Positions 11,302 to 24,683 of a stretch of 26,118 bases of DNA are shown one piece after another. The position numbers and the translations under genes were made by a program. The DNA comes from Patescibacteria group bacterium (GTDB lineage: Bacteria; Patescibacteriota; Gracilibacteria; Peribacterales; Peribacteraceae): positions 1 through 26,118 of the forward strand of contig JBBTTQ010000034.1 in the NCBI GenBank assembly GCA_038064175.1. Direction: 5' to 3'. Under the pieces are notes generated by a model that searched no databases, was not told the DNA's origin, and saw only the letters and a program-made list of their open reading frames with translations. Each line of letters opens with the position of its first letter. Positions within the stretch are counted from its first letter, which is position 1.

Positions 11302-11486
11302 TTTCGTGCGCTCTTTGGCTCAAAACAAGCATTACTTTGGAACCTGTATGATCTTGATGATCTCAACAGAGTGGGGTGGTCGGTACCGACCTTTTCCCTG
11401 TTGATAAGCCAAAGCCCTAGCCAAGGCGACGAAGGGGCGGTGGAGCGGATGGCGAAATATCGACCGAAGGAGGCGAAGCGGGTCCA
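11289..11486. ncRNA. Candidate structured non-coding RNA (family unknown)
   Basis: Four nested complementary segments found by eye: 11296-306/11474-83, 11313-20/11407-14, 11363-69/11398-404, and palindrome 11378-91. No credible ORF; adjacent terminator suggests the minus strand. Confidence 0.3.
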
Positions 11487-11592: not shown

Positions 11593-12861
11593 TCACAGAC
11601 TTGTAGCGTTCAGGAGCGGTTCCTTGAAACTGTCGGGATCGCCGCTGAAGCCCTCGGCTCCGGCCTGCGGAAAAGCGCCGGTCTTCAATGCATCGCGCAC
11701 GGCCGCAACGCCTGCCGCGCCGACCGGTTTTCCCGTGCGAGCGATCCAGAGCGCCGCAACGCCCGCCGCATGCGGGCTCGCCATGCTCGTTCCGCTGATC
11801 GTCTTGTAGGACGAACTTTTCCACGTCGAAGTAATGCAGACACCGGGAGCGGCGATGTCAACCGTGCTGCCGAAATTGCTGAAGTCCGCAAAAGTGTCGT
11901 CGATGTCCGATCGGCAGGTTTTGGGAGCTCCTCCACCGGGGAGACCGTTGAAGTCTGCGATCGCGGAGACGGCAAGAACATCGGGATGATTTGCGGGGCT
12001 GAACGTTGCCGCATCTTTCGCGGAATTCCCGGCTGCAACGACGAAGACGACTCCGGCGGCTGTAGCCCGCGTGAGGGCGCTGTCCATGGCGGCCGTTTGA
12101 CATTCGCAGCCAAGACTCATGTTCGCGACTTCGATCAAAGCCGCATTCGCCGCAACGTAATCGATGCCGGCGATCACATCGGAGAGGAATCCTGAGCCCC
12201 AGCGGTCGAGGACTTTCACGGACCAGAGGCGGGCGCCGGGCGCGACCCCGACGACACCGACGCCGTTATCTTTTGCGGCGGCCGTGCCCGCGACGTGCGT
12301 CCCGTGTCCGTTCAAGTCCTGCGAGGAAAGTTCGCGGCTGAAATTGGCGAGCTTGAAGACGTTCAAATCGGGATGGGTGCTCTGGATGCCCGTATCGAGA
12401 ATGGCGATGTCGACATCCACCCTCTCATCCAGGCCATCGATCTTCGCAGTCGGATTCTTCTCCGCATCGACGCGGTTGATGCCGGTCGGAAGCGTCTGCG
12501 GATCCCTGTGTGAAAAAGCATAGACGATTTCGTCCTTTTCAATAAGAACGACATCCGTGTTCTCCCGGAGGAGCGCAACCTGCGCCGGTGCGAGGGTGGC
12601 GGCGAAACCGCCGAGATACTGAAACACATGGGACACGTCTGCGAACCCTGCGGCACCCGACATTTCATCCAGGAACAACGGCGCGGATGTTCCTTCTTTT
12701 AGGAGGACAATAAAACGTTCCTGAGCACCTCGCTCCATACCCAGTTTCTCCATCACATCAAAAGACTCCTCGGCGACCGCGCTACCGAAGGAGAGAAAAA
12801 ATGCCAAGGCCAGGGCCACGGTTCGTCGTATGGTCGTCACAGAGAGAACATGGTACAGCAT
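11593..12861 (-). CDS. Secreted subtilisin-family (S8) serine peptidase with an inhibitor-I9-like propeptide
   Basis: Signal peptide (RRTVALALAFFLSFGSAVA) and catalytic motifs ILDTG, HGTHVAG, AAGN, GTSMASPH. Start ATG 12861 preferred over 12975. Confidence 0.93.
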   Translation of the reverse strand: MLYHVLSVTTIRRTVALALAFFLSFGSAVAEESFDVMEKLGMERGAQERFIVLLKEGTSAPLFLDEMSGAAGFADVSHVFQYLGGFAATLAPAQVALLRENTDVVLIEKDEIVYAFSHRDPQTLPTGINRVDAEKNPTAKIDGLDERVDVDIAILDTGIQSTHPDLNVFKLANFSRELSSQDLNGHGTHVAGTAAAKDNGVGVVGVAPGARLWSVKVLDRWGSGFLSDVIAGIDYVAANAALIEVANMSLGCECQTAAMDSALTRATAAGVVFVVAAGNSAKDAATFSPANHPDVLAVSAIADFNGLPGGGAPKTCRSDIDDTFADFSNFGSTVDIAAPGVCITSTWKSSSYKTISGTSMASPHAAGVAALWIARTGKPVGAAGVAAVRDALKTGAFPQAGAEGFSGDPDSFKEPLLNATSL

Positions 12862-12888
12862 TCTGTACCCGGACAGTGCGAGCTTTTG

Positions 12889-12917
12889 CTGACAAATATG
12901 CGAAAAAATTGTATAAT
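12889..12917 (+). promoter_or_regulatory. sigma70-type promoter pointing at the ECF gene, overlapping a divergent TTGTAG-N18-TACAAT for the S8 gene
   Basis: CTGACA-N17-TATAAT (plus). Minus-strand elements at 12909-12938. Confidence 0.55.
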
Positions 12918-13096
12918 AATCATATTTTTTGTCTACAACCATTGATCGATGGAAGCACATAGCAGCGACTTTCACTGTCTCATAAGCAGTAAAATCTTTT
13001 TGTGATCAAGAAAAGTGCGCGAAAGAATCCGAGCTGTTGCATGTGAGTAATCTTGGGTACCATTCCCCCCTTTTCCTAATGTGAGGAAATTTTGAC

Positions 13097-13663
13097 ATGG
13101 ATGCATCTCTGAATCTTCGGGAACGCTTCACCCGTGCGTACGAGGAATACGCCGGTGCCATCGCGAAGTACTGTATGCAACAGGGGGCGGATCCCGCCGA
13201 TGCCGAGGAATACACGCAGGAGGCGTTTCTTCGCACGTGGGAGTACCTGGCCTCGGGGAAGGAGGTGCTCCATTTAAAAACATTTCTCTATCAGGTCGCG
13301 TCGAACGTGATGATCGACGAAGTGCGGCGAAAAAAGAGGAAGCGCGAACTCTCGCTCGACGCGCTCCATGAGCAGGGCTTCGATCCCGGCCACGACGACC
13401 GATCGGCACTGCAGAAGCTCATGGAAGCAAAAATCATTCTCTACAAAACAGAGGTGCGGAAAGAGTACAAACTCCTCGTCATGCGCTATATCCATGGATT
13501 TCCCGTGCGCACCATCGCGTCCATGATCGGACAAACACCGAATGCTGTTGCCGTACGATTACATCGTGCCGTCAAACGACTATCCCGAATGTCAATCTCG
13601 GGTTTGCAGATAATGAGCGTTAAATCGACTGCTGATGCACGCAATGAACCACTTATGAAATAA
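13097..13663 (+). CDS. ECF-type sigma-70 factor (divergent; no adjacent anti-sigma)
   Basis: Region 2 (AEEYTQEAFLRTW...KTFLYQVASNVMIDEVRR) and region 4 (MRYIHGFPVRTIASMIGQTPNAVAVRLHRAVKRL). Confidence 0.88.
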   Translation: MDASLNLRERFTRAYEEYAGAIAKYCMQQGADPADAEEYTQEAFLRTWEYLASGKEVLHLKTFLYQVASNVMIDEVRRKKRKRELSLDALHEQGFDPGHDDRSALQKLMEAKIILYKTEVRKEYKLLVMRYIHGFPVRTIASMIGQTPNAVAVRLHRAVKRLSRMSISGLQIMSVKSTADARNEPLMK

Positions 13664-13697
13664 AGAACAGAATTTCAAAACAACGCAAGCAATGTTT

Positions 13698-13727
13698 TGT
13701 AATACTTATTCTTCGGGGGGCGTCTAA
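13698..13727 (+). promoter_or_regulatory. Putative ECF-type promoter of the giant repeat gene
   Basis: TGTAAT-N17-CGTCTAA, similar to B. subtilis SigX/SigM-type consensus (TGTAAC/TGAAAC-N16-17-CGWC). Ends 28 nt before ATG 13756. Confidence 0.45.
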
Positions 13728-13755
13728 AGGGAACTTATTTTTTCTCCAGCACTCT

Positions 13756-16700
13756 ATGCCTACTGTGCGCAGAACTCTCGGAACAAAAACACAAAGGAAG
13801 AAAAAGCAGAAACGTATCACTCTTTCCCTCCGAAGCACGCTCGCGGCAGGGGTGACAGCAGTGATGCTTTTCTGGGTGAACGGGACGGCTTCGGCTAACC
13901 AGTTCAGCGCCATCACGACCGTCGCGAACACGATTGTCAGCGCGATTTTGAGTCCGACGTCGCTCTTCTCGACGACGACGAGTCAAACTTCCAGCGGGCC
14001 GGTGAACCAGGACGTCCTCTACGACGGTTCTGCGGACACGGCTGCGGATGTCTCCGGCGCGATCGCGGCGGATAACACCGCGGATATCGTTCAGGCGGAG
14101 ACCGCAGTGGGTTTAACGAACCAGGACGGCTTGATCGACGGATCCGCCGTCTCCGATGTCCTCGTGGACGTCGCTGCGGATGCGACGGTCGCGGCCACTG
14201 TCGATCAGACGGCTACGGGTCCCGCGAACCAGGACGCAGAGGGCACGAGTGAGGGATCCACGGATGTTGATAGTGACATTGGCGTGGATACCATGAACGA
14301 TCTCCTCGTCGATCAGTCCGCGGACACGGGTCTCATCAATCAAAACGGAGGTATCGTGGCGGATGCCGATTCCGAGGTGGTTCAGCTCATCGCGGGCGGT
14401 TCCACGGGAACGTCCGATGTCACGCAGGCCTCCACGGGCGGCCCCGCGAACCAGGACATCACGAATATCACCGTGCTGAACACGGTCTTGAACGCGGTTC
14501 AGAATATTCTGACCTTCAACGTGGTCGATATTGATCAGAATTGCGTTGGAACATGCAATCAGACTGCGGATGTCGATGTGAATGCGGTGACCCTCGCGGG
14601 CCAGGTGCTCATAGGCGATTCCACGGCGGTAAACACTCTGACGCAGACGAATGCCGGCGGCAGCGCCAATCAGAATGCGGGCAACAACTCCTCGACCGCT
14701 TCCATCCTCGAAGCTCTCCAGGATATCCTCACAGGCAATTCCGTCGGGGTCACCCAGACGGGCGTTGACGGCAACGCAAACCAGGACATGGCGCTCGAAG
14801 GCAATGCCGGCGTCCTCGCGGAGCAGGTGGTCGACAGCAGCGCCGTCACCTTAGACGAAGTCACGCAGGCGAATGCTGGCGGAAGCGCGAACCAGGATCT
14901 TGAAAACAGCGGCACCGCTCTCGATGCGGTTATCGCATTGCAGGGTGCTTCCGCTCTGAATTCGGTTCTTGCCAGTCAGAACAATGATGACGGTAATGCG
15001 AACCAGGATATCGATGTCGCCTTTGACGCGAATGTCGCTGGCGCTCAGGTCGTGGAAGGTACGGCAGCAGCCGTTTCTGACCTCACGCAGACGAACGTCG
15101 GCGGCGCCGCGAACCAGAACGCAGTGAACGCCGCGACGGCAGTCGACTCGATCCTTGCGGGTCAGGAGCTCGGCGCCGCGAACACGGTCGACGCCAGTCA
15201 GGACAACGGCGAAGGAGATGCGAACATGGATATTGATGCGGATGTCTCAGCCAGTGTGGAGGGCGCCCAACTCATTTCCGGTCCGGCAGTCGCAGCGACG
15301 ACGGCCGTACAGTCGAATATCGGCGGCAGCGCGAACCAGGACTTCGGTAATTCCGCGGTCGCTCTGGATACGATCGTCGCCGGCCAGAGCCTCGGCTCTT
15401 CCAATGACGTGGACGTTGACCAGGACAACGACGAAGGCAACGCCAACATGGACGCGGGCGTCTCCGCCCTCGCCGGTGTCGCCGGTGTGCAGGCTATTGA
15501 AGGAACGGCGCTGTCCGCGAACCTGATCGGTCAGGTCGTTGTCGGCGGAGATGGAAACCAGGAACTCGATAACGATTCCGTTGCAAGTGACGTGATCGTT
15601 GCTGGCCAGGAGATGGCGGCCCTCAATCAGATCGATGTCGGTCAGGAAAATGACGACGGCGATGCCAACATGAACGCAGAGGTCGGCGCCGATGCCGCTA
15701 CGGAAGGCGCGCAGCTCATTGAAGGCGGCGCGGTGTCATTGAACGCCCTCGGTCAGGCGGTCGTGGGCGGTGACGGAAATCAGGATCTCACGAACGCTTC
15801 GACAGCGGCGAATGTCATCGTAGCCAGTCAGGATCTGATTGCAGGCAGCGATATCGACGTTACCCAGGACAATGACGACGGCGATGCCAACATGAACGCA
15901 GAGGTCGATGCCGAAGCGGATGCAGCCGGCGCGCAGCTCATCGAAGGAACGGCAGTCTCCGCAACGCTTGCGGGACAGGCAGTCATTGGTGGCGACGCGA
16001 ACCAGGATATGGATCTCACCTCCGTCGCGTCTGACACGATCGTCGCAGGCCAGGGTGTTGCGGCCGGACATGAAATCGATGTGGATCAGGAGAATGACGA
16101 TGGCGACGCCAACATGGACGCAGGCGTCCTTGCGGATGCGGACGCCGATGGCGTTCAGCTCATCTCCGGTCCCGCAGTGGCAACGACGACCGCAGGGCAG
16201 ATCGCGGCGGGCGGCAACGCGAATCAGGATATGGATAACGTGACCGTTGCGTCCGATGCCATCGTTGCGGGCCAGGAGGTCCTCGCCGGCAGCTCGGTCG
16301 ATATCGACCAGGACAACGACGACGGTGATGCCAACATGTCGGCGGATGCTGAGGTTCTCTCCGATGCGGACGGCGCCCAGATCATCGACGGCACTGCGCT
16401 CGCGGACAACGATCTCACACAGCTCAATGTCGGTGGTAACGCCAATCAGGACATGGCGAACGATTCTGCCGCGACGGATGTCATTGTCGCCGGACAGACG
16501 GTTTTCGCTGGCAGCGAAGTCGAGATGGACCAGGAGAACGACGACGGTAATGCCAACATGGATATCGACTTCCTCGCCGATGCGGATGCGGACGGAGTGC
16601 AGGTGGCGACGGGGGTTGCTGTTTCCTTGAGCGAACTGGATCAGACGAACGTCGGTGGCGACGCGAACCAGACGGTCGATCACGATAGCGATGTCGTCTC

Positions 16701-18915
16701 CGTCACGGATCTCGACCAGGCGGTCGTTGCCGTGAACGGCGCGGAACTCGATCAGGACAATGACGACGGCAATGCCAATATGGATCTCGCTATGGACATG
16801 GACAGCGACGCGACAGCGGCTCAGGTCGGCACGACCGTCGCATTCGACAGCGCTACGATCGGTCAATTGAATGACGGCGGCGCCGCGAACCAGAGCGTCG
16901 AGAGCAACACTCCTTCGACAGCAGTCACCGTTGGTGACCAGGCAGTCGTAGCGGTCAATGGCGCGGAGGTGGATCAGGACAACGACGATGGCAGCACGAA
17001 TATGCTCGTGGACGCGGATCTCGATGCGGCCGCAAATGGAGGACAACTCCTCGACTCCGTTGCCGGGGATGTCCTCACCGTCGACCAGACAAACGTCGGC
17101 GGCTCGGCCAATCAGGATGTGGACACGAACAGTGAGTCCACAGCGGTAACGATCGGTGTTCAGGAAATCGTCGCCGTGAATGCAGCGGACATTGATCAGG
17201 ACAACGACGATGGCTCTGGGAATATGAGCGCCCTCCTCGACATGGACAGCGACGCCGCAGGCGAACAGGGTGTCACATCCGTCGCAGGCAGCAGCTCGGA
17301 CGTCGATCAAACGAACGTCGGCGGCTCCGCGAACCAGACGGCTGCCAGCGACGGCACATCCACGGCTGTCGGTGCAGGCGATCAATCCATCACGTCCCTG
17401 AACGATGCGGACGTCGACCAGGACATTGACACCTCGCTCGGCGCAGGTTCGCAGGCGGCGGACATCATCGCCGATGCGGATGCTTCAGGCACGCAAGGCG
17501 TTACCTCCGTTTCCGGCAACAGCCAGGACTTGGATCAGACGAACGGCGGAGGCGCTGCAAATCAGGACGGCAGCAACACGGCGGATGCCACTTCCCTTGC
17601 AGACGGCAACCAGGAGATCGCTGCGGTGAATGACATCGACCTCGATCAGGATATCGATCTCGTCGCAGGCGCCGGTGCGCAATCGACGACGATCATCGCC
17701 GATGCAGACGCTTCGGGCAGCCAGACGACGGTTGCGGTAGCCGGCAACAGCCAGGACTTGGACCAGACGAACGGCGGAGGATCCGCGAACCAGACCGGTT
17801 CCAATAATGGCTCTGCGACGGCGGTCGCCGATGCGGGCTCGTCCCAGACCATCACGGCCTTGAACGACATCGACGTCGATCAGGACCTCGATGCGACGAG
17901 CGCGGCAGGCGCGCAGTCAGCGCTCATCACCCCGACGGCCACGGCCACGGGCGAGCAGACGACGGTCGCAGCCTCCGGAAATGACCAGTCCGTCACGCAG
18001 ATGAATGACGATGGCGCAGCGAACCAGGACGGTTCGAACACGGGAAATGCGACAACCGTCTCCGATGCGGATCAGGACATCTCAGCCACGAACAACGTGA
18101 CCCTCGTCCAGGACGCGACGGCAACGAACGCGGCAGTCGCCCAGGCGGCTCGCGTCGCTCCGACGTCCGAGGCTTCCGGCAGCCAGACAGTGGATGGCGT
18201 CTCCGGCAACACGCAGTCGGTGGATCAGAGTGTCGATGACGGCTCCGGTAACCAGGAAGGCAGTAATGACGGCACGGCCGTCACAGGCGCCTCCGGCGAA
18301 CAGGACGTCGCTTCCGAGACGAACACATTGATCACCCAGGACTGCGACGTGAGCTTCGGCGCATGCGCTCAGTACGTCGATCTCGCTCCGGGCGCCAGCA
18401 CGACGGCCAACCAGGAACTCTCGGCCGGCTCCGGCAACGATCAGACGGTGAATCAGGCGGTGGAGGACGGCTCCGGTAACCAGAACGCCGCGAACTCCGG
18501 CGAAGCGGAAACGATTGCGGATGCCGATCAGGATGCTTCGTCCTCCGTCGACACGACAGTTGTCCAGACCTGCACGCTGACGGGCGGCGCCTGCGCCCAG
18601 TACACGGGCGGCACGCCGACTTCGACGACGACAGCCGATCAGTCCATCACGGCAACGTCGGACAATGATTCCGAAATCAACCAGGACCTGGACGCCGACG
18701 CTTCCGGCAACCAGGATGCTGATTCCGACACAAGCGCTCTCACATATGTCTCCGCTGTTCAGAATGCTCTCTCGAACACGACGACGGACGTGACGCAGAC
18801 ATCGGGTGCCGGCGGCAATCAATCGGCCACGGTGAACGGTTCTTCGACCACGACCTCGACCATGAGCTTGACCGCAGGTTCGTCGAACACGACCACGATC
18901 AACCAGAATCAGTAG
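13756..18915 (+). CDS. Giant secreted acidic repeat protein (1719 aa; about 44 Q/N-patterned ~37-aa units)
   Basis: Basic n-region, hydrophobic segment and ASA cleavage motif (about aa 47). The rest alternates QxxxGGxANQ and QDNDDGxANM units with a 74-aa period. No C-terminal anchor. Confidence 0.92.
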   Translation: MPTVRRTLGTKTQRKKKQKRITLSLRSTLAAGVTAVMLFWVNGTASANQFSAITTVANTIVSAILSPTSLFSTTTSQTSSGPVNQDVLYDGSADTAADVSGAIAADNTADIVQAETAVGLTNQDGLIDGSAVSDVLVDVAADATVAATVDQTATGPANQDAEGTSEGSTDVDSDIGVDTMNDLLVDQSADTGLINQNGGIVADADSEVVQLIAGGSTGTSDVTQASTGGPANQDITNITVLNTVLNAVQNILTFNVVDIDQNCVGTCNQTADVDVNAVTLAGQVLIGDSTAVNTLTQTNAGGSANQNAGNNSSTASILEALQDILTGNSVGVTQTGVDGNANQDMALEGNAGVLAEQVVDSSAVTLDEVTQANAGGSANQDLENSGTALDAVIALQGASALNSVLASQNNDDGNANQDIDVAFDANVAGAQVVEGTAAAVSDLTQTNVGGAANQNAVNAATAVDSILAGQELGAANTVDASQDNGEGDANMDIDADVSASVEGAQLISGPAVAATTAVQSNIGGSANQDFGNSAVALDTIVAGQSLGSSNDVDVDQDNDEGNANMDAGVSALAGVAGVQAIEGTALSANLIGQVVVGGDGNQELDNDSVASDVIVAGQEMAALNQIDVGQENDDGDANMNAEVGADAATEGAQLIEGGAVSLNALGQAVVGGDGNQDLTNASTAANVIVASQDLIAGSDIDVTQDNDDGDANMNAEVDAEADAAGAQLIEGTAVSATLAGQAVIGGDANQDMDLTSVASDTIVAGQGVAAGHEIDVDQENDDGDANMDAGVLADADADGVQLISGPAVATTTAGQIAAGGNANQDMDNVTVASDAIVAGQEVLAGSSVDIDQDNDDGDANMSADAEVLSDADGAQIIDGTALADNDLTQLNVGGNANQDMANDSAATDVIVAGQTVFAGSEVEMDQENDDGNANMDIDFLADADADGVQVATGVAVSLSELDQTNVGGDANQTVDHDSDVVSVTDLDQAVVAVNGAELDQDNDDGNANMDLAMDMDSDATAAQVGTTVAFDSATIGQLNDGGAANQSVESNTPSTAVTVGDQAVVAVNGAEVDQDNDDGSTNMLVDADLDAAANGGQLLDSVAGDVLTVDQTNVGGSANQDVDTNSESTAVTIGVQEIVAVNAADIDQDNDDGSGNMSALLDMDSDAAGEQGVTSVAGSSSDVDQTNVGGSANQTAASDGTSTAVGAGDQSITSLNDADVDQDIDTSLGAGSQAADIIADADASGTQGVTSVSGNSQDLDQTNGGGAANQDGSNTADATSLADGNQEIAAVNDIDLDQDIDLVAGAGAQSTTIIADADASGSQTTVAVAGNSQDLDQTNGGGSANQTGSNNGSATAVADAGSSQTITALNDIDVDQDLDATSAAGAQSALITPTATATGEQTTVAASGNDQSVTQMNDDGAANQDGSNTGNATTVSDADQDISATNNVTLVQDATATNAAVAQAARVAPTSEASGSQTVDGVSGNTQSVDQSVDDGSGNQEGSNDGTAVTGASGEQDVASETNTLITQDCDVSFGACAQYVDLAPGASTTANQELSAGSGNDQTVNQAVEDGSGNQNAANSGEAETIADADQDASSSVDTTVVQTCTLTGGACAQYTGGTPTSTTTADQSITATSDNDSEINQDLDADASGNQDADSDTSALTYVSAVQNALSNTTTDVTQTSGAGGNQSATVNGSSTTTSTMSLTAGSSNTTTINQNQ

Positions 18916-18935
18916 GCAACGGGCGAAAGCCTGGG

Positions 18936-18967
18936 AAAAGGGGAGCCGCACAGGGCTCCCCTTTTTT
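18936..18967 (+). terminator. Intrinsic terminator (potentially bidirectional)
   Basis: aaaa-ggggagcc-gcacag-ggctcccc-tttttt. Confidence 0.85.
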
Positions 18968-19017: not shown

Positions 19018-19045
19018 ACTGTCAATATAATATCATATTGACAGT
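19018..19045. other. Perfect 11-6-11 inverted repeat between two terminators
   Basis: ACTGTCAATAT-aatatc-ATATTGACAGT. Confidence 0.8.
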
Positions 19046-19062
19046 CCGGTCTCCGCTCATGC

Positions 19063-19094
19063 AAAAAAAAGCCGCCCCGCGCGCGCGGGGCGGC
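19063..19094 (-). terminator. Intrinsic terminator of the minus-strand gene
   Basis: GC-rich palindrome gccgccccgcgcgcgcggggcggc with an A8 run on plus (U-tract on minus). Confidence 0.85.
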
Positions 19095-19114
19095 CCAGAT
19101 TCTTTGTGCATCCA

Positions 19115-19456
19115 TTACTTCGTCTCCCTTGTTTCCTCCACCGGTTTTTCCCCGACATCCAGTGCGTCCTCCGGGAGTCCGTAGTGCAGGAGACATTTCT
19201 TCAGGAAAGACTCATAGTCGCTCCTGAGGTACATATTCTTCTCCGCCATGTTGGTGTAGGTCTTTGCATCTTTCGTTCCCTTCGCCAACTCTGCCTTGGA
19301 TTTGAGAAGCGTGCGGGCATCCGCCGACGCTTCCCGCGCACATTGCCGGTAGGAAAGGATCGGTCTGATCTGGAACCAGTAGAAAAAGAAACCGGTGAGA
19401 ACGAGCGCGACGAGGAGCCAGAGTCGCCCGCGGAATGGATTGCTTCGAAGCAGCAT
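19115..19456 (-). CDS. Hypothetical protein with one N-terminal TM and a Cys pair
   Basis: MLLRSNPF...WLLVALVLTGFFFYWFQIRP...QC...KKCLLHYGL. ATG 19456 follows a pyrimidine-rich leader. Confidence 0.7.
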   Translation of the reverse strand: MLLRSNPFRGRLWLLVALVLTGFFFYWFQIRPILSYRQCAREASADARTLLKSKAELAKGTKDAKTYTNMAEKNMYLRSDYESFLKKCLLHYGLPEDALDVGEKPVEETRETK

Positions 19457-19625
19457 GGGAAGGAAGGGGAAGAAGAAGAAGAACGCGCGGCGAACCGGGC
19501 GAGTGGCAGACGGTACGTGAGCGAACATTCATTTGTCAACATCCATTGCCTTTTGTCCACTTCGAACGTACGAAAAAACGCTATTAAAACTCCTTTTTCC
19601 CTTATTTAAGCCATTCTACTTCTTT

Positions 19626-19655
19626 TTGACAAAGTTTGATAATCGTTTCTACAAT
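19626..19655 (+). promoter_or_regulatory. sigma70-type promoter
   Basis: TTGACA-N18-TACAAT, 8 nt before ATG 19664. Confidence 0.55.
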
Positions 19656-19663
19656 TCCTTTCC

Positions 19664-20986
19664 ATGCTGCGCTGGATTGCCACCGTGCTTCTCTCGGCCT
19701 GTCTCTCGCTTGGGATGGTTCTTCCCGCGGAGGCTGCGTACGTCTCGCTTAAGGATTTCAAGCTCCATGATTTTGACGATGCAATCTTAAAGCAACTCGG
19801 GTTCAGCGTCGGGGTCGTCGTGTATTACAGTGAAATGGCCTCCATCACATCCGAACAGGTGACGGAGCGGAGGCAACTGGAACGGATCGGATGCAATCCG
19901 TTCCTCATCATGAAAGAAGGACAGGTGCTGGAAAAAGGATATAACTGCCGGTCGTTCTTCTGTGCCGGCTACATCAAAGGACCGAAGCAGTGCATGACGA
20001 ATAAAGGCGAACCCACGGGCGGCGTCGTTGAGATCAGCCGGCGCCTCGGTCTCGTCGTGATTCCCGAAGAGACGACCTACTTCGACATGATGCCTTCGGC
20101 GGAGGTAACGGAGAGCATGCGCACAAGGATGGCTGATATGTCTGAAGTCCGCTGCAGGCCGTTTTATATCCGCATGTTCGATATCCTCATCGGCGAAGGC
20201 TACACATGTGACGAGGTGGGACAGTTCCCGTACTTCTCCCCGGCGAACCTTTGCAAAGACGATTGGCGTGATCAGAAGAAAGTTTTTTCCTGCACGCTCC
20301 CGGAGCGCCGCGATGAAGTGGAGATCCGCAAAACCGCCATTTCTCTTCGCGAGGACAGGAGCGTGAGCAGCGCCGCTTCGTCCGCTTCTTCTTCAGACTT
20401 TTCCGTTATGACAGGCATTCCCCCCACGTCGTTTGTCGACGTCATCGCCGGTCAGTATGGCTATACGGCCATCATGGATCTCCTCCGTCGCGGGATCATT
20501 CGCGGTTACGATGACGGACTCTTTCGGCCGAAAGCGATGGTGAATCGGGCCGAATTTGTGAAAATGCTCATCGGCGGACTGCACCCTTCAGAGGCACAGG
20601 GCGAAACGAACTGTTTTCCGGATGTCACGGACGAGTGGTTCGCGTCCTCCGTCTGCGCGGCGAAGAGACTCGGTTGGGTTTCCGGTTACAGCGACGGCAG
20701 ATACCGGCCGGACCAGGTCATCCGTCGCGACGAAGGACTCAAGATTGTCGTTGCCTCCCTGGGGCTGCCCCTCGAAACGACAGCCCCCGCGCCGCCGGAC
20801 GTTGCAAGCAGCACCTGGTTCACGCCCTACGCCCGCAAAGCCATGGAACTCAGACTCATCCTGGAGCCGACCTTTCGTCCCATGCTGATCGCAACGCGCG
20901 CCGATGCGGCAGTCTGGATGTACAGAGGCCTTCAGGCGATGCAAGGGGCAGGAACATCCTCATCCAGTACAAAAACTTCTCCATAA
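19664..20986 (+). CDS. Secreted protein with a duplicated Cys-rich module and C-terminal SLH domains
   Basis: Signal peptide (...PAEA); SLH motifs FVDV...GIIRGYDDGLFRPKAMVNRAEFVKM, FPDVTDEWF...GWVSGYSDGRYRPDQVIRRDE, PPDVASSTWF...ATRADAA. Confidence 0.88.
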   Translation: MLRWIATVLLSACLSLGMVLPAEAAYVSLKDFKLHDFDDAILKQLGFSVGVVVYYSEMASITSEQVTERRQLERIGCNPFLIMKEGQVLEKGYNCRSFFCAGYIKGPKQCMTNKGEPTGGVVEISRRLGLVVIPEETTYFDMMPSAEVTESMRTRMADMSEVRCRPFYIRMFDILIGEGYTCDEVGQFPYFSPANLCKDDWRDQKKVFSCTLPERRDEVEIRKTAISLREDRSVSSAASSASSSDFSVMTGIPPTSFVDVIAGQYGYTAIMDLLRRGIIRGYDDGLFRPKAMVNRAEFVKMLIGGLHPSEAQGETNCFPDVTDEWFASSVCAAKRLGWVSGYSDGRYRPDQVIRRDEGLKIVVASLGLPLETTAPAPPDVASSTWFTPYARKAMELRLILEPTFRPMLIATRADAAVWMYRGLQAMQGAGTSSSSTKTSP

Positions 20987-21163: not shown

Positions 21164-23275
21164 ATGTCCGCACGCTCTCTCTCGATTCAGTCACTCTTCA
21201 CCGTTCCGGTTCTCGTCATTGCATGGGTCGTTGGAACCCTTTCATTTTCTGCGTTGGCGGCGGGCGAAACATGTAACGGCCTTGCAGCGACGATCGTTGG
21301 CACCGCGGGCAATGATTCGATCAATGGAACGTCCGGCGATGACGTGATCGTCGGTCTCGGCGGCCATGACAGCATCAATGGAAATGGCGGCAACGATACC
21401 ATTTGCGGGAATGCGGGTGATGACGAGATCAATGGGGACAATGGGCATGATTACATCGAAGGCGGAGACGGTGCGGATGAAATCAAGGGCGACAACGGCG
21501 ATGACACGATATTCGGAGGAGAGGGCAATGACGAGATCGACGGCGGCAACGACGAGGACTCGCTGTGCGGCGATGCCGGCAACGACATTCTCGAAGGCAA
21601 GAATCATAATGACACGCTCTGCGGCGGCGATGGCGAGGACGAATTGAAAGGCGGTATCGGTGACGACGTTTTGGACGGTGGCGCGGGTACCGATACGCTC
21701 CAGGGTGATCTTGGAATCGATGCCTGCCACCAGGGTGAATCGAACTCCGGCTGCGAATCGACGAGCGGCTCGGCCTCTTCGCTCTGCCCCGCAAGCGGTG
21801 GCGGCAGTTCCAGCAGCGTCAGCAGCGCAAGTTCCAGCGACAGTTCAGGGGCAAGCAGTGTCAGTTCATCGGTTTCTTCAAGCTCATCTTCCGTCGTATC
21901 CTCCTCTTCCTCCGTTGACCCCGGAATTGTTCCGACATGCCGGGGGAGAACCGCGACTATCTACGTGTATCTCGGAGTCATCATCGGAGGCGACGACCAC
22001 GGCAGTCTCTATGGCGGAACATTGAATGGAACGGCGGGAGACGATGTGATGGTCGGCACTGCCGGTTCCGATACGATCGACGGCGACATGGGCAATGACG
22101 TCATCTGCGGTCTTTCGAGCAACGATGACATCGAGGGGGGATTCGGCGATGACGAGGTGGATGCAGGAGACGGCAATGACACCGTCACAGGAGAGATCGG
22201 CGACGACACGCTCTGCGGCGGGGAGGTGGACGACGTGCTCAGAGGGAGTATCGGTGACGATATTCTCTGCGGCGACAATGGCAATGATACGCTGGAAGGC
22301 GATATCGGCAGTGATAAATTGCAGGGCGGTCCCGACACCGACTCCCTCGATGGAGGCATTGACAGCGATATCTGCCTGAACGGAGAATCACTCTCCAGCT
22401 GCGAGGACACGGCAACGCCGTTCCCGGAGTGCGATCCCTCCGGCGGCTCTTCGTCCAGTGACGGCAGCTCTTCAAGTTCAGGCGGGTCTGGCGGGTCCGA
22501 GGGATCATCGAGTTCGGATGGCGGCGGCTCCAGTATTTCCTCCAGCGCCGGGAGCAGCGTAAGCAGCAGCGGTGGGGGAGGGGGAGGGGGAGAAGACGAG
22601 GGTGGTGGGGGGGGCGGAACGCTCAGTCTCGACGGCACGAACGGCCAGGGCGGTCATCGCGGTCACCGGACGAACTTGATCGCAGGCGTCGCGCGCATGC
22701 TGGTCTTCTGGCACCTGGAACCCGGTGCGCGGGGCTTTACCGGCATCGCTTCGGGCGGATTCGGTGGCATCGCCCCCGGGGCGTTCGGCGGGAACCCGGG
22801 AGGAAGCTATTCGGAGGAGGAACTGAATCTCGCTTGCGCTCTCCGGGAGGCGCTTCCGCGCATCATGACAGCAGGAGTTCTTCAGTGGACGATTGAATAC
22901 ATCGCCAACCTCGTGAACGGCAATCCTGAGGTTATCCGGGAAGTGCTCATCGATCCCGATCTCTGTGAAAAACCCTCCTTCTCGGCGAGCGCGGCTCCGG
23001 AACTTTTGGTTACCCAGGCGGAACGCATCCCTTTGCCCGTTGCCGACGACGGCACGCCGACATCGACGAATATGGCATTCAACGCCTGTATCCGGAGACA
23101 AGTTCTTCTTGATCGTGACGGAAAGCCTTATAACTGCCGTCGCTACTACGAAGCGAACACCTGGATCCACCCGGATACGGGAGCGACGTTCGTGTGGCAT
23201 AACCGTGTGCGTCCCATGCTCTTCCTGCCGGACAACGTGTACGCCGTGCGTGACACGTACGTCGTCTCCAGGTAG
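21164..23275 (+). CDS. Secreted hemolysin-type (RTX-like) Ca-binding repeat protein: two modules, Ser/Gly linkers, unknown C-terminal domain
   Basis: N-terminal signal peptide; many GGxGxDxI/L nonapeptides; each module opens with TCxG..AT and closes with C..GE...CE. Confidence 0.88.
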   Translation: MSARSLSIQSLFTVPVLVIAWVVGTLSFSALAAGETCNGLAATIVGTAGNDSINGTSGDDVIVGLGGHDSINGNGGNDTICGNAGDDEINGDNGHDYIEGGDGADEIKGDNGDDTIFGGEGNDEIDGGNDEDSLCGDAGNDILEGKNHNDTLCGGDGEDELKGGIGDDVLDGGAGTDTLQGDLGIDACHQGESNSGCESTSGSASSLCPASGGGSSSSVSSASSSDSSGASSVSSSVSSSSSSVVSSSSSVDPGIVPTCRGRTATIYVYLGVIIGGDDHGSLYGGTLNGTAGDDVMVGTAGSDTIDGDMGNDVICGLSSNDDIEGGFGDDEVDAGDGNDTVTGEIGDDTLCGGEVDDVLRGSIGDDILCGDNGNDTLEGDIGSDKLQGGPDTDSLDGGIDSDICLNGESLSSCEDTATPFPECDPSGGSSSSDGSSSSSGGSGGSEGSSSSDGGGSSISSSAGSSVSSSGGGGGGGEDEGGGGGGTLSLDGTNGQGGHRGHRTNLIAGVARMLVFWHLEPGARGFTGIASGGFGGIAPGAFGGNPGGSYSEEELNLACALREALPRIMTAGVLQWTIEYIANLVNGNPEVIREVLIDPDLCEKPSFSASAAPELLVTQAERIPLPVADDGTPTSTNMAFNACIRRQVLLDRDGKPYNCRRYYEANTWIHPDTGATFVWHNRVRPMLFLPDNVYAVRDTYVVSR

Positions 23276-24394: not shown

Positions 24395-24506
24395 TTTTCG
24401 GAAGAGCCCTGATACAAGGGAAAAAAAGAAGATAGGTGCAAGGATATTTGAAAAGTGATCCTGCAATCTTTGTAACAAATTTCAGCGGGAGACGTTTCAT
24501 CATTGC

Positions 24507-24683
24507 ATGCATCTTTTTTTCCTTTCACTCCTTCTTTCAGCTGAAACAGCATTCGCTCAATCACCTTGGATCATGCCCCATTTCTGGTTCTCGAAACCAG
24601 GACCGCTCTGCGGCGAAGGATGGACCACACCGGGACTCGGACTGATCTGGGACAATGTCCCGCTGTCGGTTTGTATTTTTTGA
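24507..24683 (+). CDS. Putative 58-aa secreted Trp/Cys-containing peptide (below the ORF-track cutoff)
   Basis: MHLFFLSLLLSAETAFA|QSPWIMPHFWFSKPGPLCGEGWTTPGLGLIWDNVPLSVCIF*; preceded by TGTAAC-N16-CGTTTC (24471-24498). Confidence 0.4.
   Translation: MHLFFLSLLLSAETAFAQSPWIMPHFWFSKPGPLCGEGWTTPGLGLIWDNVPLSVCIF

Follow-up and report, generated by a model that had tools for sequence, protein, structure and literature searches.

A probable dedicated extracytoplasmic function sigma factor without an anti-sigma factor for a giant surface-protein gene in Peribacteraceae

Introduction

Some sigma factors of the extracytoplasmic function (ECF) type are encoded inside the gene cluster that they control. 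Sigma-AntA, in the antimycin cluster of Streptomyces, has no co-encoded anti-sigma factor, is not autoregulated, has few local targets and sets its output by its own amount; HrpL (ECF32) of Pseudomonas syringae, likewise cluster-situated and without an anti-sigma factor, has the same traits. Surface proteins can also be under ECF control, as with sigma-BldN of Streptomyces, which has the anti-sigma factor RsbN and a pro-sequence and transcribes the chaplin and rodlin surface-amyloid genes, the chaplins being small. The promoters of sigma-X, sigma-M and sigma-W of Bacillus subtilis take forms such as TGTAAC-N17-CGAC and TGAAAC-N16-CGTA, and these sigma factors show autoregulation and each have an anti-sigma factor in the membrane as partner. 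Autoregulation and a co-encoded regulator are usual among ECF sigma factors, while certain groups have no canonical regulator (PMC7826278). Here we describe a locus of a Candidatus Peribacteria genome in which an ECF gene is followed by the gene of a giant secreted repeat protein and, on its other side, diverges from the gene of a subtilisin of peptidase family S8. Comparative genomics suggests that the ECF sigma factor reads the promoter of the giant gene.

Peribacteria belong to the Candidate Phyla Radiation (CPR), in which gene regulation is almost unknown because the bacteria are uncultured and have few regulators. A literature search on sigma or ECF factors in Peribacteria or Peregrinibacteria returned nothing relevant, and the main text of the ECF classification paper (Casas-Pastor et al. 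2021, ECF01-ECF2xx) makes no mention of CPR phyla. The stretch of DNA analysed, hereafter the window, is 26,118 nt long and is the complete contig C34 of a 1.18-Mb genome (G000) that is 96.5% complete. Its DNA is present in 15 sequencing runs, all of groundwater metagenome DNA. The block L15-secY-adk-map-S13-S11-S4-rpoA-L17-L13-S9 occupies the window's left half, and the locus studied lies just downstream of it.

Our survey covered 200 genomes of Peribacteraceae from 84 genera. Giant homologues occur in 14 of them, from 11 genera, and one more (G175) was recognised through its ECF gene, so that family counts use 15 giant-bearing genomes. Synteny counts are out of 13, the relatives with a giant homologue and an assembled upstream flank. 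The contig of P0009 was not taken as an independent locus, as it comes from the same organism as G032 and is mis-joined. A first-pass annotation of the window had proposed that the housekeeping sigma factor makes the ECF, that the ECF switches on the giant gene and that the subtilisin processes or sheds the product. The positions it gave for the subtilisin, the ECF gene, the spacer between them, the promoter motif, the giant gene and its terminator all held (Table 1).

Results

The ECF gene and the giant gene's promoter are conserved together

In the 13 relatives, which come from 11 other genera, the giant gene is immediately preceded by a same-strand ECF gene in every case but one, so in 12; the exception is G172. 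The same order was found on a 21.5-kb Logan contig from an unrelated public run, which carries S8, ECF, a 1553-aa protein without a Pfam family, a 126-aa gene on the opposite strand and a protein with S-layer homology (SLH) domains.

The giant gene is preceded by an ECF-type promoter whose core motif, TGTAATACTTATTCTTCGGGGGGCGTCTAA (TGTAAT-N17-CGTCTAA), is at 13698-13727. An exact GTAAY-N17-CGTY stands before the giant gene in seven genomes (G000, G002, G032, G149, G079, G116 and G117), and six more carry one-base variants at the same spacing, namely TGTAAG in G105, a -10 of CGTGTT in G123, TTGAAA...CGTCAT in G187, TGAAAT in G034, CGTAAG in G175 and AGTCAC in G019. The 17-nt spacer is fixed in length while its sequence is unconserved, a pattern that fits contacts at two distinct points. 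The ATG of the giant gene's longest open reading frame (ORF) comes only a few bases after the motif in three genomes, which indicates that those ORF starts are over-extended. The motif is also rare: exact TGTAAY-N17-CGTCT has between 0 and 5 copies per genome in ten whole genomes, and in seven of these the giant-gene site is one of them. A weight matrix made from eight sites, the window site among them, gave that site 23.5 bits, the best score in its genome (next best, 19.2), and the giant promoter was the top match in 9 of the 13 loci. The first-pass annotation had suggested motif conservation upstream of giant orthologues as a check on its link from ECF to giant, and that link is strengthened by the motif, the gene order and the absence of both an anti-sigma gene and autoregulation described below. 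On this comparative evidence, the adjacent ECF probably reads the giant promoter.

Looser matches (TGTAAY-N16/17-CGT, plus strand) number four in the window against 0.19 expected, at 2854-2878, 13698-13723, 21272-21297 and 24471-24495, and three of the four have other explanations, though the excess over expectation stands. Two of these, at 2854 and 21272, had been raised as a caveat in the first-pass annotation and are real; the copy at 24471 is additional. As ECF promoters all three were rejected: the 2854 copy is inside a ACAATGTA tandem repeat overlapping the start of secY, the 21272 copy consists of Thr-Cys-Asn codons in the RTX gene and is not kept in G002, where the reading is TGC, and the 24471 copy (TGTAAC-N16-CGTTTC) is not conserved in G002, whereas the ORF behind it is. 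A 58-aa ORF with a signal peptide and two Cys lies at 24507-24683 (+); its counterpart in G002 has 51 aa (L173:1640-1792), with a C-terminal half that is 60% identical.

Outside the window, the sole other exact TGTAAY-N17-CGTCT in G000 is on contig C138 at 11404-11431 (-), where a gene for a secreted LamG/TSP3/RTX-type protein (C138:9928-11431, locus L176) follows after about 45 nt. The LamG domain is common to this gene and a G032 gene, with 56% identity. The motif precedes both of these homologues and is absent before those of G149 and G117; the LamG-RTX gene was therefore rejected as a conserved second target and is a lead only. An exact TGTAAT-N17-CGTCT in G032 (L083, G032:C10:1787-1814, -) is followed after about 150 nt by a 492-aa gene resembling a primary sigma factor and may be there by chance.

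An ECF sigma factor without anti-sigma partner or autoregulation

The ECF protein matches Sigma70_r2 (PF04542, 46.2 bits) and Sigma70_r4_2 (PF08281, 33.4 bits), has no region 3 and passes the general ECF model (TIGR02937, 69.3 bits, cut-off 42.9). The named NCBIfam ECF subfamilies (SigM, BldN, SigW, SigX, SigY, SigE-strep and PG0214) all scored below their cut-offs, the best partial matches being to SigM_subfam (69.2 against 147.95) and to the BldN family (66.2 against 206.45).

As the first-pass annotation had observed, the gene that follows is the giant gene and not an anti-sigma gene. No ORF lies between the ECF stop at 13663 and the giant start at 13756, and neither the giant nor the small membrane protein encoded beyond it matches an anti-sigma family. 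A prediction of the complex of the ECF with this small membrane protein, as a hidden anti-sigma factor, scored 0.00, giving no support without counting against the idea. The protein is unlikely as a classical anti-sigma factor, its N-terminal tail having only about 10 residues and its two invariant Cys lying in the C-terminal part. Upstream of the ECF gene itself, the best ECF-type motif scored 7.3 bits in G000 and at most 6.5 bits in 12 relatives, compared with 19-23 bits for most giant promoters. Neither the co-encoded anti-sigma factor nor the autoregulation of a canonical ECF/anti-sigma module was thus found, and the ECF beside the giant belongs functionally with the ECF groups that have no canonical regulator.

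When 34 ECFs of these genomes are placed in a tree, 20 fall into one clade (support 100/99), and most of these are encoded before a partner with a conserved N-terminal motif (DUF5667-like). All 13 giant-linked ECFs lie outside this clade, 10 of them grouping at 97/97, and none has a DUF5667-like partner downstream. In G000 itself, C14:2370-4401 (locus L006) holds a paralogous ECF, with 41% identity, and a 510-aa protein whose start this ECF overlaps and which gives a weak DUF5667 match. Pairs of this C14 type are widespread in the family.

Just before the ECF start codon, 11 of the 13 orthologous loci share TGGTAcgAT-N3-5-CCCC-TTTTTT, in which the TGGTAcgAT element is plausibly an extended -10 promoter followed by a pyrimidine-rich leader typical of the lineage. 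The composite of -10 and CCCC-TTTT was rejected as an ECF-specific regulatory site, as paralogous ECF genes and others also have pyrimidine-rich leaders. Such leaders, with CCCC, TTTT or TCC runs instead of a Shine-Dalgarno sequence, stand before start codons, at 13066-13096, 13728-13755 and 19656-19663 and at the paralogous ECF loci. The start codons often lie only 10-30 nt past a -10-like hexamer, and the arrangement may be general for translation starts in the lineage.

The first-pass annotation had instead placed the promoter of the ECF gene among overlapping sigma70-like promoters (12889-12938) in the spacer between S8 and ECF. This spacer (12862-13096, 235 bp) has a GC content of 0.396, falling to 0.273 in its core (12880-12945), against 0.566 for the window, and two divergent matches with overlapping -10 hexamers are indeed present there. 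However, the region holds five sigma70-like sites against 2.4 +/- 1.5 in shuffled sequence, so the matches alone are not significant; they are not kept in the nearest relative, the same-genus genome G002, and the spacer sequence is unconserved except for the ECF-proximal promoter. Transcription of the ECF gene by the housekeeping sigma factor is still plausible, although from the conserved ECF-proximal promoter and not from the AT-rich core. The minus-strand match is compatible with an S8 start at 12861.

Other routes to transcription of the giant gene

Several observations weigh against the adjacent ECF as the reader of the giant promoter. The 15 runs with this DNA are all of groundwater DNA, no RNA run being listed for 12700-14300, and the transcript start of the giant gene is a predicted one. 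As no terminator stands between the ECF and giant genes, the giant may also be expressed by read-through. In G172 a giant homologue has neither an ECF next to it nor a clear motif. Giant-linked and paralogous ECFs hardly differ in the sigma-4.2 recognition helix and region 2.4, and the genome has six sigma70-family genes (five alternative sigma-like ones), so another ECF could read the promoter. ECF-type motifs also stand before RTX-type secreted genes, that of C138 in G000 and, in weaker form, others in G019, G032 and G116, and the regulon may extend beyond one gene.

The near-identity of the recognition segments, the number of sigma factors and the orphan giant of G172 are what would be expected if a different ECF, such as the DUF5667-partnered C14 paralogue, read the giant promoter. 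The giant would then answer to a conventional envelope signal controlled by an anti-sigma factor, and the adjacent ECF would have other or redundant targets. Yet it is the distinct ECF set that accompanies the giant across genera, in all but one of the loci compared, and among the ECF loci examined this set occurs only beside giants, whereas the paralogue clade is widespread (136 of 200 genomes with ECF matches) and the upstream regions of its ECF genes have no motif. We consider control by a paralogue to be quite unlikely.

Read-through in its strongest form would make the ECF and giant genes one operon, transcribed from the housekeeping-type promoter of the ECF gene, with GTAAY-N17-CGTCT acting as a binding site or an RNA element. 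The 92-nt gap, with no ORF, terminator or stable structure (z 0.39), would permit this, as would the locus of G034, where the two genes are only about 40-100 nt apart. The element, however, has the bipartite form, the spacing and the sequence of canonical ECF promoters, with no conservation in the 17 nt between its halves, and it stands at a promoter-like distance from the giant start codon in all loci. A single operon is in our judgement very improbable, and reading of the giant promoter by the adjacent ECF is the account that we prefer.

The subtilisin is an inconstant neighbour

The subtilisin has the features of secreted, zymogen-type S8 proteases: a Peptidase_S8 domain (PF00082, 154.2 bits), the catalytic triad motifs in order (DTG, HGTH, GTSMASPH), a marginal Inhibitor_I9 propeptide (PF05922, 22.2 against a cut-off of 21.2) and a signal peptide. 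Its nearest solved structures in the PDB are savinase, subtilisin Carlsberg and proteinase K (E 1e-45). The longest ORF starts at GTG 12975 (11593-12975, -). The true start is probably the ATG at 12861 (MLYHVLS...), which gives a signal peptide ending in AVA. Two observations favour it: GTG 12975 is upstream of the minus-strand promoter match, and relatives have no counterpart of the N-terminal extension. An inverted repeat, ggtacagcattctgtacc, at 12852-12869 covers this likely start codon and could influence translation of S8.

The role given to S8 in the first-pass annotation, that of a processing or shedding partner, belongs to a full three-part module in which S8 would specifically mature, trim or shed the giant (compare FapD and SipW) and S8 and ECF would be controlled together from their common spacer. 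Both S8 and the giant are secreted. S8 adjoins the ECF gene divergently in G000, in four relatives (G002, G032, G116 and G117) and on the Logan contig, and lies elsewhere inside the locus in G149, G079 and G187. Close orthologues (at least 58% identity) occur in 9 of 15 giant-bearing genomes against 6 of 185 others, a contrast that is overstated since the giant-bearing genomes are related to each other; it counts against dismissing S8 altogether, and a looser functional tie to the giant is possible.

On the other side, the synteny that was called for holds for ECF and giant and fails for S8, which is within the locus in only 7 of the 13 relatives and absent from 6, its orthologue sitting on another contig in G019 and G175. 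Among the 15 family genomes with a close orthologue, 9 also have a giant or short giant-like gene, while in the other 6 neither was detected; in 4 of these 6 the orthologue adjoins RTX and/or M23 genes. No ECF-type motif reached the 14-bit threshold in the spacer between S8 and ECF. The constant peptidase linkage of dedicated subunit-peptidase systems (FapC/FapD, TasA/SipW) is therefore not seen here. The enzyme itself resembles broad-specificity degradative subtilisins, and amino-acid acquisition by external proteolysis has been inferred in the Peribacteria genome paper (PMC4736985). Taken together, a three-part module is unlikely, and S8 appears to be a general secreted protease of degradative type, frequent among surface-protein genes, with no fixed or specific part in the locus.

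A predicted wide beta-solenoid and its neighbours

The giant carries a basic-tailed Sec signal peptide and a predicted cleavage site ASA/NQ, followed by about 44 repeats whose period is free of gaps in the orthologues. The mature protein contains 219 Asp, 49 Glu, a single Arg and no Lys. The giant matched no family in Pfam (E <= 0.01) or NCBIfam, nor the Curlin_rpt model (PF07012), and a search of 1.84 billion proteins found its repeats in only 5 representatives. Residues 455-898 were modelled (predicted local distance difference test score, 94.3), and the model has twelve strands, each about 33 residues long, with turns of 3-4 residues between them. We read this prediction as a very wide, flat, two-sheet beta-solenoid with one 74-aa coil per double repeat.

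Foldseek against the PDB returned no match to the model at E <= 0.001, the Atlas fold search gave template modelling (TM) scores of 0.24 or less (TamB-like), and Atlas feature searches with the giant and with the N-terminal domain of the SLH protein gave nothing usable. In an exhaustive structural alignment the top rows were parallel beta-helices, SufD/SufB scoring Z 10.6-10.8 and curli CsgA scoring Z 9.8 and 7.4, and the lower-scoring rows were TPS domains, RTX rolls and antifreeze solenoids. The superposition on CsgA (Z 9.8) has a root mean square deviation of 8.1 over 141 residues, with a Foldseek E of 0.039 and a TM score of 0.05.

Two conserved genes were missed in the first-pass annotation. 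A small membrane protein, with the motif FYW...RP, two invariant Cys and no known family, is encoded directly after the giant in 9 of the 13 relatives. An overlapping plus-strand ORF (19106-19609, 167 aa) was rejected as a gene and taken as an antisense shadow, the conserved protein being on the minus strand. A near-perfect palindrome, tgtcaatataatatcatattgaca, lies at 19022-19046, between the two convergent terminators. Further on is an SLH-domain protein (PF00395, 72.7 bits, in two stretches), found in 10 of the 13 loci. Its N-terminal domain occurs in 20 of the 200 family genomes, including 13 of the 15 that bear a giant.

Three giant-less genomes (G026, G077 and G013) encode short giant-like secreted proteins of 283-354 aa directly upstream of the SLH-protein orthologue. 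These share residues 240-300 of the giant (NAVQNI...QNCxxxCxQ) and a Gln-rich C-terminus, and may represent the unexpanded form of the giant family. Because SLH protein and short giant-like protein are paired in these giant-less genomes, the pairing of the SLH protein with the giant family seems older than the link to the ECF. The pairing suggests wall anchoring of the giant, and the small membrane and SLH proteins are likelier candidates for a role in anchoring or assembly than S8.

Table 1. Positions of the features of the locus in the window, and of the short giant-like genes at other loci
Feature	Position	Strand	Details
Secreted S8 subtilisin	11593..12861	-	Signal peptide and I9 propeptide; Pfam, NCBIfam, PDB neighbours, synteny 7/13
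Overlapping divergent sigma70-like matches in AT-rich core	12889..12935	both	+ CTGACA-17-TATAAT, 12889-12917 (11/12); - TAGACA-16-TACAAT, 12935-12908 (10/12)
ECF-proximal promoter and leader	13053..13076	+	TTGGGTACCAT, then CCCCCC-TTTT; extended -10-like; kept in 11/13 orthologous loci
ECF (group 4) sigma factor, 188 aa	13097..13663	+	Pfam/NCBIfam; no anti-sigma partner; no ECF-type motif upstream
ECF-type promoter of the giant gene	13694..13727	+	TTTTGTAAT-N17-CGTCTAA; about 29 nt before giant start codon
Giant secreted repeat protein, 1719 aa	13756..18915	+	Signal peptide; 37-aa repeat with 74-aa double period
Intrinsic terminator of giant gene	18940..18967	+	60-nt stretch at -33.5 kcal/mol, z -4.7, then U6
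Small single-pass membrane protein, 113 aa, with own terminator	19069..19456	-	Gene 19115-19456, terminator 19096-19069; conserved in relatives
SLH-domain protein, 440 aa, with promoter match	19626..20986	+	Gene 19664-20986 behind TTGACA-18-TACAAT; Pfam, synteny
Secreted RTX-repeat protein	21164..23275	+	Frequent neighbour; Pfam, synteny; holds 21272 motif copy in codons
Short giant-like proteins	L052:12579-13508, L058:5955-6806, L055:11942-13006		Share giant segment 240-300

Discussion

The account that we favour for this locus, and hold to be reasonably likely as a whole, is that of a lineage-specific surface gene cluster of Peribacteraceae in which a dedicated ECF with no anti-sigma partner serves one main target promoter, other genes encode anchoring partners and S8 has a minor role. 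The ECF gene would be transcribed from its housekeeping-type extended -10 promoter, and its product would exert no feedback on its own gene, so that some signal setting the level of the ECF would determine the output. The ECF holoenzyme would initiate at the promoter before the giant gene and transcribe this 5.2-kb gene up to its strong terminator. The giant would then be exported by the Sec pathway and cut after ASA, and, extremely acidic and lysine-free, would fold into a wide beta-solenoid. The small membrane protein and the wall-binding SLH protein would be its likeliest partners in assembly or anchoring, and S8 would be a general secreted protease outside the fixed module.

A bolder and doubtful extension, which we put forward only tentatively, is that the ECF, the giant, the small membrane protein and the SLH protein jointly build an undescribed surface structure. 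This could take the form of plates or ribbons, anchored to the wall, of a Ca-binding, lysine-free beta-solenoid about 11 nm wide, and a dedicated sigma factor that has no anti-sigma would turn on all of its parts together, for example on attachment to a host or mineral. If true, it would be among the first sigma-promoter-target circuits readable directly from CPR genomes.

From comparative genomics alone, the locus yields a sigma factor, a promoter (TTTTGTAAY-N17-CGTCTA) and a main target, each at the strength given above. A very rare, uncatalogued giant surface protein is tied to two specific candidate partners, a small membrane protein and an SLH protein as the likely wall anchor, and this limits the ways in which Peribacteria may form their envelope or attach to other cells. 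The comparison also corrects the view of the subtilisin as a part of the machine.

Comparison with known systems

The promoter before the giant gene is like those of the B. subtilis ECF sigma factors in its GTAAC-like -35, its 16-17-nt spacing and its CGT-containing -10, and the best partial NCBIfam matches of the ECF include the SigM, SigW, SigX and SigY models, all below their curated cut-offs. As with sigma-BldN, the ECF is proposed to switch on a secreted, self-assembling surface-coat protein, and it gives a partial match of 66 bits to the BldN family. Unlike sigma-BldN, it has no anti-sigma factor, its target is a repeat protein of 1719 aa, and its score is far under the 206-bit cut-off, so that it is not a member of that family.

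The giant is like the curli, Fap and TasA proteins in being a secreted, Gln/Asn-rich repeat protein, and the stacked beta-solenoid predicted for it may be a further likeness. It differs from curli in its predicted strands of about 33 residues, against about 8, in forming one long chain instead of many small subunits, in having no Pfam match, in the absence of CsgG/E/F-type genes beside it in the loci compared, and in its proposed control by an ECF instead of a LuxR-type regulator (CsgD). In contrast to FapC/FapD and TasA/SipW, a peptidase is not consistently linked to it.

In its traits the regulatory core is like sigma-AntA and HrpL: an ECF inside the cluster that it would control, with no co-encoded anti-sigma factor, no autoregulation, few local targets and an output set by the amount of sigma factor. 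Unlike sigma-AntA, the ECF described here has no C-terminal Ala-Ala degron (it ends ...EPLMK), and unlike both it would act on a structural surface protein instead of biosynthetic or secretion genes, in a CPR host with a 1.2-Mb genome. The regulatory core thus appears to be of a known kind, a cluster-situated ECF without anti-sigma or autoregulation, that is new in its CPR setting, where it would drive a very rare giant surface protein.

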